Assembly: GCF_003334815.1 (NCBI RefSeq)
Contig: NZ_QOWO01000105.1
Origin: Escherichia coli
GTDB lineage: Bacteria; Pseudomonadota; Gammaproteobacteria; Enterobacterales; Enterobacteriaceae
Direction: 5' to 3' (one strand)
DNA: 1,140 nt
This document shows positions 1 to 1,140 of this stretch, piece after piece. The notes below the pieces were generated by a model. It was not told the DNA's origin and did not search any database. It saw nothing but the letters and a program-made list of their open reading frames with translations. The position numbers were made by a program, and so were the translations under genes. The number at the start of each line of letters is the position of its first letter. Within the stretch, counting starts at the first letter, position 1.

Positions 1-8
1 ATGTGCGA
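1..8 (-). ncRNA. RNA-OUT: 5' end (first 8 nt) of antisense RNA-OUT; the rest of the ~70-nt RNA lies upstream of the window
   Basis: The reverse complement of nt 1-8 (atgtgcga) is TCGCACAT, which matches the 5' end of RNA-OUT as I recall it (5'-UCGCACAU...). In IS10 the RNA-OUT 5' end is a few nt inside the transposase start codon and pairs with the RBS/AUG region of the transposase mRNA (RNA-IN). Only the complement of the start codon and the next 5 nt is visible here. Confidence 0.6.
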
Positions 9-1140
9 ACTCGATATTTTACACGACTCTCTTTACCAATTCTGCCCCGAATTACACTTAAAACGACTCAACAGCTTAACGTTGGCTTGCCACGCATTAC
101 TTGACTGTAAAACTCTCACTCTTACCGAACTTGGCCGTAACCTGCCAACCAAAGCGAGAACAAAACATAACATCAAACGAATCGACCGATTGTTAGGTAA
201 TCGTCACCTCCACAAAGAGCGACTCGCTGTATACCGTTGGCATGCTAGCTTTATCTGTTCGGGCAATACGATGCCCATTGTACTTGTTGACTGGTCTGAT
301 ATTCGTGAGCAAAAACGACTTATGGTATTGCGAGCTTCAGTCGCACTACACGGTCGTTCTGTTACTCTTTATGAGAAAGCGTTCCCGCTTTCAGAGCAAT
401 GTTCAAAGAAAGCTCATGACCAATTTCTAGCCGACCTTGCGAGCATTCTACCGAGTAACACCACACCGCTCATTGTCAGTGATGCTGGCTTTAAAGTGCC
501 ATGGTATAAATCCGTTGAGAAGCTGGGTTGGTACTGGTTAAGTCGAGTAAGAGGAAAAGTACAATATGCAGACCTAGGAGCGGAAAACTGGAAACCTATC
601 AGCAACTTACATGATATGTCATCTAGTCACTCAAAGACTTTAGGCTATAAGAGGCTGACTAAAAGCAATCCAATCTCATGCCAAATTCTATTGTATAAAT
701 CTCGCTCTAAAGGCCGAAAAAATCAGCGCTCGACACGGACTCATTGTCACCACCCGTCACCTAAAATCTACTCAGCGTCGGCAAAGGAGCCATGGGTTCT
801 AGCAACTAACTTACCTGTTGAAATTCGAACACCCAAACAACTTGTTAATATCTATTCGAAGCGAATGCAGATTGAAGAAACCTTCCGAGACTTGAAAAGT
901 CCTGCCTACGGACTAGGCCTACGCCATAGCCGAACGAGCAGCTCAGAGCGTTTTGATATCATGCTGCTAATCGCCCTGATGCTTCAACTAACATGTTGGC
1001 TTGCGGGCGTTCATGCTCAGAAACAAGGTTGGGACAAGCACTTCCAGGCTAACACAGTCAGAAATCGAAACGTACTCTCAACAGTTCGCTTAGGCATGGA
1101 AGTTTTGCGGCATTCTGGCTACACAATAACAAGGGAAGAC
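1..1140 (+). CDS. tnp: IS10/Tn10 transposase (IS4 family, DDE transposase), 3'-partial: codons 1-380 of an expected ~402
   Basis: Manual frame-1 translation from nt 1 gives 380 codons with no stop: MCELDILHDSLYQFCPELHLKRLNSLTLACHALLDCKTLTLTELGRNLPTKARTKHNIKRIDRLLGNRHLHKERLAVYRWHASFICSGNTMPIVLVDWSD...QIEETFRDLKSPAYGLGLRHS...GYTITRED. This matches the IS10 transposase as I recall it, with DDE residues at the expected positions (D97 nt 289-291 gac; D161 nt 481-483 gat; E292 nt 874-876 gaa) and the YREK signature Y285/R288/E292/K299. The frame is open to the last base, so the CDS is truncated by the window edge. Recognition is from memory, not a database search. The symbol tnp follows the Tn10 literature; this gene has no universally fixed symbol. 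Confidence 0.95.
   Translation, partial: MCELDILHDSLYQFCPELHLKRLNSLTLACHALLDCKTLTLTELGRNLPTKARTKHNIKRIDRLLGNRHLHKERLAVYRWHASFICSGNTMPIVLVDWSDIREQKRLMVLRASVALHGRSVTLYEKAFPLSEQCSKKAHDQFLADLASILPSNTTPLIVSDAGFKVPWYKSVEKLGWYWLSRVRGKVQYADLGAENWKPISNLHDMSSSHSKTLGYKRLTKSNPISCQILLYKSRSKGRKNQRSTRTHCHHPSPKIYSASAKEPWVLATNLPVEIRTPKQLVNIYSKRMQIEETFRDLKSPAYGLGLRHSRTSSSERFDIMLLIALMLQLTCWLAGVHAQKQGWDKHFQANTVRNRNVLSTVRLGMEVLRHSGYTITRED
9..45 (-). promoter_or_regulatory. pOUT: pOUT promoter region driving RNA-OUT (minus strand); -10-like hexamer TAAAAT at nt 16-21, -35 not confidently placed
   Basis: On the minus strand, nt 16-21 read TAAAAT (5 of 6 match to TATAAT), about 8 nt upstream of the inferred RNA-OUT start at nt 8. 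Candidate -35 hexamers on the minus strand are weak or mis-spaced: TTGGTA at nt 34-39 has only a 12-bp spacer, and AGAATT/CAGAAT at nt 38-44 has a 16-17 bp spacer but poor consensus match. The location agrees with the established position of pOUT just inside the 5' end of the transposase gene, firing outward. Confidence 0.55.
289..876 (+). other. Span containing the DDE catalytic triad codons (D97 nt 289-291, D161 nt 481-483, E292 nt 874-876) of the transposase
   Basis: The codons gac, gat and gaa are read directly in frame at these positions. Assignment as the catalytic triad follows established knowledge of Tn10/IS4-family transposases. E292 lies within the YREK-type motif Y285-x2-R288-x3-E292-x6-K299 (IYSKRMQIEETFRDLK). 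Confidence 0.8.

Follow-up and report, generated by a model that had tools for sequence, protein, structure and literature searches.

Antisense control region of IS10-Right at the start of a transposase gene from Escherichia coli

Introduction

Antisense control of IS10-Right through the promoter pOUT and its transcript RNA-OUT was reportedly described by Simons and Kleckner in 1983. Expression of the IS10 transposase is governed both by Dam methylation, the Dam site overlapping the -10 region of the promoter pIN, and by an antisense RNA of 69 nt that is transcribed from the other strand and ends at IS10 nt 47 (Ellis et al, 2015; PMC5006887). The first 35 nt of RNA-OUT show perfect complementarity to the translation initiation region of RNA-IN, the transcript encoding the transposase, and when the two RNAs pair, ribosome binding is stopped (PMC5006887). 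Control tightens as copy number rises (multicopy inhibition), with the transposase acting in cis and the RNA in trans (PMC5006887). The RNA chaperone Hfq accelerates pairing approximately 20-fold and also binds RNA-IN directly, where its second site is an 8-nt U-rich region overlapping codons 5-8 (PMC5006887). The antisense promoter pOUT is located on the strand opposite to pIN, 35 bases downstream of it (Levine et al, 2007; PMC1994261). It reads outward from IS10 and is able to activate genes that flank the insertion (PMC9330008, PMC2744996).

Several other insertion sequences provide points of comparison. IS1999 of Tn1999, which is related to the IS10A element annotated on OXA-48 plasmids, has been reported to carry a Pout. 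The art200 RNA of IS200 and the antisense RNA of IS30 likewise are opposite-strand RNAs that pair with a transposase mRNA and lower its translation, but their sequences and folds, and the transposase families to which they belong, are unrelated to those of IS10 and RNA-OUT.

Here, we analyze a 1,140-nt stretch of E. coli DNA, which we refer to throughout as the window. We find that the first 45 nt of the window, with pOUT and the start of RNA-OUT, almost certainly form the downstream half of the antisense control region of IS10. The feature is the textbook pOUT/RNA-OUT start of IS10 and is already known.

Results

The window is part of an IS10-Right transposase gene

Frame 1 of the window is a single uninterrupted reading frame of 380 codons, whose translation begins with MCELDILHDSLYQF. 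The window scores 400.5 bits against the NCBIfam IS4-family transposase model NF033591 (cut-off 152), and matches base for base, in one piece and with 100% identity, nt 108-1247 of the 1329-bp IS10-Right copy of Tn10 on plasmid R478. A scripted comparison places this exact match at positions 1001-2140 of the R478 locus (L002), where the element runs from CTGATGAATCCCC to GGGGATCTCTCAG and its two ends form the imperfect inverted repeat expected for IS10. The ATG at window nt 1-3 is thus IS10 nt 108-110. The corresponding R478 gene encodes WP_001339197.1 (402 amino acids), which NCBI names "IS4-like element ISVsa5 family transposase". Its neighbors are a helix-turn-helix gene and tetC, with tet(B) present in a parallel locus; the copy adjoins tetD/tetC in Tn10, which is the position of IS10-Right. 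The reading frame is as follows:

1-1140, plus strand: IS10-Right transposase coding sequence (IS4 family), codons 1-380 of 402, identified by translation, by NF033591 and by identity to WP_001339197.1.

This gene is widely distributed. Megablast searches recovered the window from 1820 of the 5426 complete genomes of E. coli, and nearly all matching E. coli records (2177 of 2182) were at least 99% identical to it. A further search matched 2269 plasmid records from Escherichia, Klebsiella, Salmonella, Vibrio and others. Copies on plasmids are often cut at recurring points, with the match ending at window nt 965, 905, 877, 747, 517, 265, 122 or 54, and other shortened copies begin at codon 16. 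These shortened copies often lie beside IS26 or IS1 and are often unannotated, and the recurring cut points suggest repeated IS-mediated deletions of IS10. Within the coding sequence, we also noted a hairpin resembling a terminator, GGGCAATACGATGCCC, with a T-poor tail behind it (window 261-276, plus strand). One such hairpin was found in the window against 1.0 expected from shuffled sequences, so that this one probably reflects chance.

The minus strand of the first 45 nt carries pOUT and the start of RNA-OUT

The preliminary description had pointed to two strings on the minus strand at the start of this gene, and both are there. The reverse complement of nt 1-8 reads TCGCACAT, which had been recognized as the 5' end of RNA-OUT, and a motif search places the hexamer TAAAAT at nt 16-21. 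The hexamer had also been described as correctly spaced for a transcript starting at nt 8, and we indeed count 7 nt between TAAAAT (21 to 16) and TCGCACAT (8 to 1). With the published start of RNA-OUT at IS10 nt 115, we infer that TAAAAT is the -10 element of pOUT. Together with two further stretches, the features of this region are:

1-8, minus strand: first 8 nt of RNA-OUT (5'-UCGCACAU), with +1 at window nt 8, equal to IS10 nt 115 and to position 1 of the Rfam RNA-OUT family RF00240.

16-21, minus strand: inferred pOUT -10 hexamer TAAAAT, which agrees with TATAAT at 5 of 6 positions and precedes the start of RNA-OUT by 7 nt.

38-45, minus strand: putative pOUT -35 stretch at 16-18 nt spacing (CAGAAT at 17 nt), a poor match to consensus.

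14-21, plus strand: AUAUUUUA, rich in U and lying in codons 5-8 of the transposase mRNA, a putative second Hfq site of RNA-IN.

The composite motif TAAAAT-N7-TCGCACAT occurs once in the window (nt 1-21, minus strand) and in none of 200 shuffled sequences. TAAAAT on its own is not enriched: the window contains two against 0.89 expected, and 38 of the 200 shuffles contain at least two. It is exact identity to the characterized IS10, and not motif statistics, that gives the observation its weight.

Copies identical to the window carry complete RNA-OUT

A search of the window alone with Rfam, at E values up to 10, returned no match, since only 8 of the 70 positions of the RNA-OUT model lie inside it. 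We therefore turned to full copies that are 100% identical to the window. In the R478 locus, RF00240 matches the minus strand from position 1008 to 939 over model positions 1-70, with a score of 98.8 bits (E = 3e-20; the gathering score of the family is 41 bits). Position 1008 is window nt 8, such that position 1 of the model falls exactly on the base at which the preliminary description had started RNA-OUT. The same full match is found in L003 and, twice, in the E. coli TUM9868 chromosome (L001), making three independent records together with R478.

The approximately 110 bp upstream of the ATG, which the preliminary description had named as the place to check, contain in these identical copies the remainder of RNA-OUT, a GATC site and the outside-end repeat. 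In the R478 locus, the outside end (CTGATGAATCCCC) begins 107 nt before the ATG and the GATC lies at IS10 nt 67-70. The inside end of the full copies is CTGAGAGATCCCC, and both element ends fall beyond the window.

The 70-nt RNA-OUT is predicted to fold into a long stem-loop, with a minimum free energy of -23.9 kcal/mol (z = -4.9). The 5' arm of this stem comprises RNA-OUT positions 3-16, and its bottom part, positions 3-8, corresponds to window nt 6-1. Six of the eight RNA-OUT bases in the window thus belong to the stem. The preliminary description was right that the window holds just the promoter and the first 8 nt of the RNA, with approximately 61 nt of the roughly 69-nt transcript lying upstream, but not that the stem-loop lies wholly outside the window, as the lower part of its 5' arm is inside.

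The part of the element seen in the window shows no difference from IS10-Right of Tn10 (RF00240). All 1140 nt are identical to the R478 copy, and the start of RNA-OUT, its -10 hexamer and the placing of the ATG (nt 108) agree both with this copy and with what has been published; the window holds the promoter and 8 of about 69 RNA-OUT nucleotides.

An estimated majority of transposase starts in E. coli genomes carry the upstream part of the control region

The window begins exactly at the ATG and nothing upstream of it is visible, which leaves room for this copy to be a 5'-truncated or rearranged IS10 fragment that lacks the RNA-OUT body, pIN and the outside end. pOUT would then yield no functional antisense RNA and serve only as an outward promoter reading into foreign DNA. 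Truncated IS10 remnants are indeed numerous on plasmids and in chromosomes, where IS26 or IS1 is often their neighbor, and adjacent genes are known to be driven by pOUT. To gauge how often a transposase start is accompanied by its upstream part, we searched complete E. coli genomes with a 107-nt junction query consisting of 62 nt of upstream sequence and window nt 1-45, and thus covering RNA-OUT and pOUT. This query matched 5993 places, and in 2051 of the 2055 matching records one place covered at least 80% of the query. Window nt 1-107, used as a query in the same genomes, matched 6435 places. By this comparison roughly nine in ten transposase starts carry the RNA-OUT body, a figure that is an estimate only, as the place counts take in partial matches.

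Two further points speak against a truncated copy. The truncations listed above mostly remove the 3' part of the gene or its first 15 codons, not the sequence before an intact ATG, and a window that opens precisely at the ATG has the look of a gene-based cut and not of a biological breakpoint. We therefore consider truncation of this copy improbable. If it were truncated, pOUT would be an orphan outward promoter for a neighboring host or resistance gene and not an antisense module; activation of this kind is already documented. From the genome counts, the copy in the window likely keeps its upstream RNA-OUT part.

Two loci show other arrangements of the IS10 5' end. In the E. coli TUM9868 chromosome (NZ_CP128923.1; L001 positions 1394-3030), the two complete RNA-OUT matches lie at 1439-1508 and 1745-1814, 306 bp apart. 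The locus looks like an IS10 5' fragment of approximately 306 bp followed directly by a complete IS10-Right that adjoins tetD/tetC/tet(B), the whole lying within a disrupted ireA, and it would encode two RNA-OUT genes to one transposase gene. In a K. pneumoniae plasmid (OW635551.1; L006 positions 1501-1640), a 5'-end remnant of IS10A, roughly 135-140 nt long, lies at the end of the copper-resistance gene pcoD. It retains the outside end together with an entire RNA-OUT (85.9 bits), has no transposase gene after it and, judging from its sequence, is an orphan antisense RNA gene.

RNA-OUT is conserved with compensatory changes in diverged relatives

We compared four sequences: IS10R, a 96.6% variant (L005), IS10A from an OXA-48 plasmid (L004), and an unannotated IS10-like fragment from the Shewanella putrefaciens plasmid pSA70-3 (CP078040.1; L007 positions 539-822). 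IS10A is 77% identical to IS10R in DNA over the first 193 nt and 67% over the element, with 73% identity in protein; protein identity of the Shewanella fragment is 58% over 74 residues. RF00240 scores 97.3 bits in the variant, 85.9 bits in IS10A and 45.2 bits in the Shewanella fragment, the last barely above the threshold of 41. In all three, position 1 of the model falls on nt 8 of the reading frame. More distant IS4-family elements, ISSfl1 and ISEc29 (about 35% protein identity), gave no match to RF00240 at E values up to 1.

In an RNAalifold analysis, every pair of the 14-bp lower stem is a standard pair in all four sequences. Four of the 14 pairs (5:64, 9:60, 10:59 and 16:53) have changed on both sides, within a small sample of only four distinct sequences. 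Pair 5:64 has window nt 4 as its 5' base, with TGC replaced there by CGC, and the Shewanella RNA-OUT carries several compensatory changes in its stem. Between IS10R and IS10A, the RNA-OUT region is 80% identical and the remaining coding sequence 66%.

IS10A shares the architecture of IS10R: its RNA-OUT begins at coding nt 8, TANNAT occupies nt 16-21, the pIN region contains a GATC, and the outside ends are similar. It differs from IS10R in its hexamer, TAGGAT, and in pair 5:64, which is G-C instead of A-U. Across the relatives, the hexamer at coding nt 21 to 16 reads TAAAAT (IS10R), TAGGAT (IS10A) and TAAGAT (Shewanella), with positions 1, 2, 5 and 6 invariant. The two that vary, 3 and 4, are those under the least constraint in -10 elements. 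The conservation of the hexamer could be owed to the protein, since its invariant positions fall in conserved Ile-Leu codons.

pOUT is identified by identity to the mapped element

Simons et al. are said to have mapped, in 1983, a minus-strand transcription start of IS10 at the position of pOUT. By sequence criteria the promoter is inconspicuous. A scan for consensus sigma-70 promoters found no site in the whole window and missed pOUT, as the best -35 candidates in the window at 16-18 nt spacing match TTGACA at just 1-2 of 6 positions. None above 2/6 was found at this spacing in IS10R, IS10A or the Shewanella relative. With no recognizable -35 element and no hit in the scan, pOUT is identified by its sequence being identical to the element mapped by experiment. 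Between IS10R and IS10A, identity in the pOUT region (IS10 nt 116-152) hardly differs from that of the coding background (68% vs 66%), and conservation thus gives the promoter no independent support beyond the hexamer.

Two further promoter signals were considered and set aside. TTGGTA (minus strand, window nt 39-34) lies only 12 nt from the -10 hexamer and was rejected as a -35 element, and a canonical extended -10 was rejected on the three bases upstream of TAAAAT, which are GTG and not TGN.

That TAAAAT and TCGCACAT are mere coding sequence with a chance likeness to a promoter, and no function on the opposite strand, is a reading that could draw on the lack of enrichment of the hexamer, the empty promoter scan, the missing -35 and the conserved Ile-Leu codons, but we regard it as barely credible given identity to the experimentally characterized IS10, where a 69-nt RNA-OUT transcript ending at nt 47 was detected, an Rfam 5' end exactly at nt 8 in four diverged elements, a stem including window nt 1-6 that is preserved by compensatory changes, and published transcript mapping that already contradicts it.

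A model for antisense control from the start of the gene

RNA-IN and RNA-OUT come from opposite DNA strands and share 35 nt of complementarity, of which window nt 1-8 are the last 8 nt. In these first 8 nt, RNA-OUT is the complement of the AUG plus the 5 nt that follow it in the transposase mRNA. If RNA-OUT starts at IS10 nt 115 and overlaps RNA-IN by the published 35 nt, the start of pIN falls at nt 81, in agreement with the known position of the pIN start.

In the scheme that follows, pOUT transcription, the block on translation and the part played by Hfq come from the literature and are set on the identity, 5' end position, fold and compensatory conservation described above. From its -10 hexamer TAAAAT (nt 21-16), pOUT would start minus-strand transcription at window nt 8, heading toward the outside end and yielding the roughly 69-nt RNA-OUT. 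Pairing would open between the 5' end of RNA-IN and the loop of RNA-OUT, aided by Hfq, then spread over the ribosome-binding site and the AUG and stop at window nt 8, thereby blocking ribosome binding. Since RNA-OUT would act in trans and the transposase in cis, repression would grow with copy number. Read-through from pOUT could also turn on genes beside the insertion. The account given in the preliminary description, in which RNA-OUT pairs with the transposase mRNA at its 5' end, blocks its translation and brings about multicopy inhibition, is the published mechanism (PMC5006887).

We tentatively place the second Hfq site of RNA-IN at AUAUUUUA, window nt 14-21, by our own mapping of the window sequence onto the published description. 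This stretch and the pOUT -10 hexamer on the other strand cover the same bases. Three constraints may bear on the 8 bases at nt 14-21: the encoded protein, the binding of Hfq and the function of the promoter.

Discussion

For annotation, the value of the feature is that it marks the window as IS10-Right of Tn10, and it brings no new biology beyond this. Few insertion sequences are as widespread as IS10-Right of Tn10 in the chromosomes of enterobacteria and on resistance plasmids. In this element, the first 45 bases of the transposase gene have a second role on the opposite strand, as the promoter and the start of an antisense RNA by which transposition is kept in check. Neighboring genes can also be activated by read-through from this promoter.
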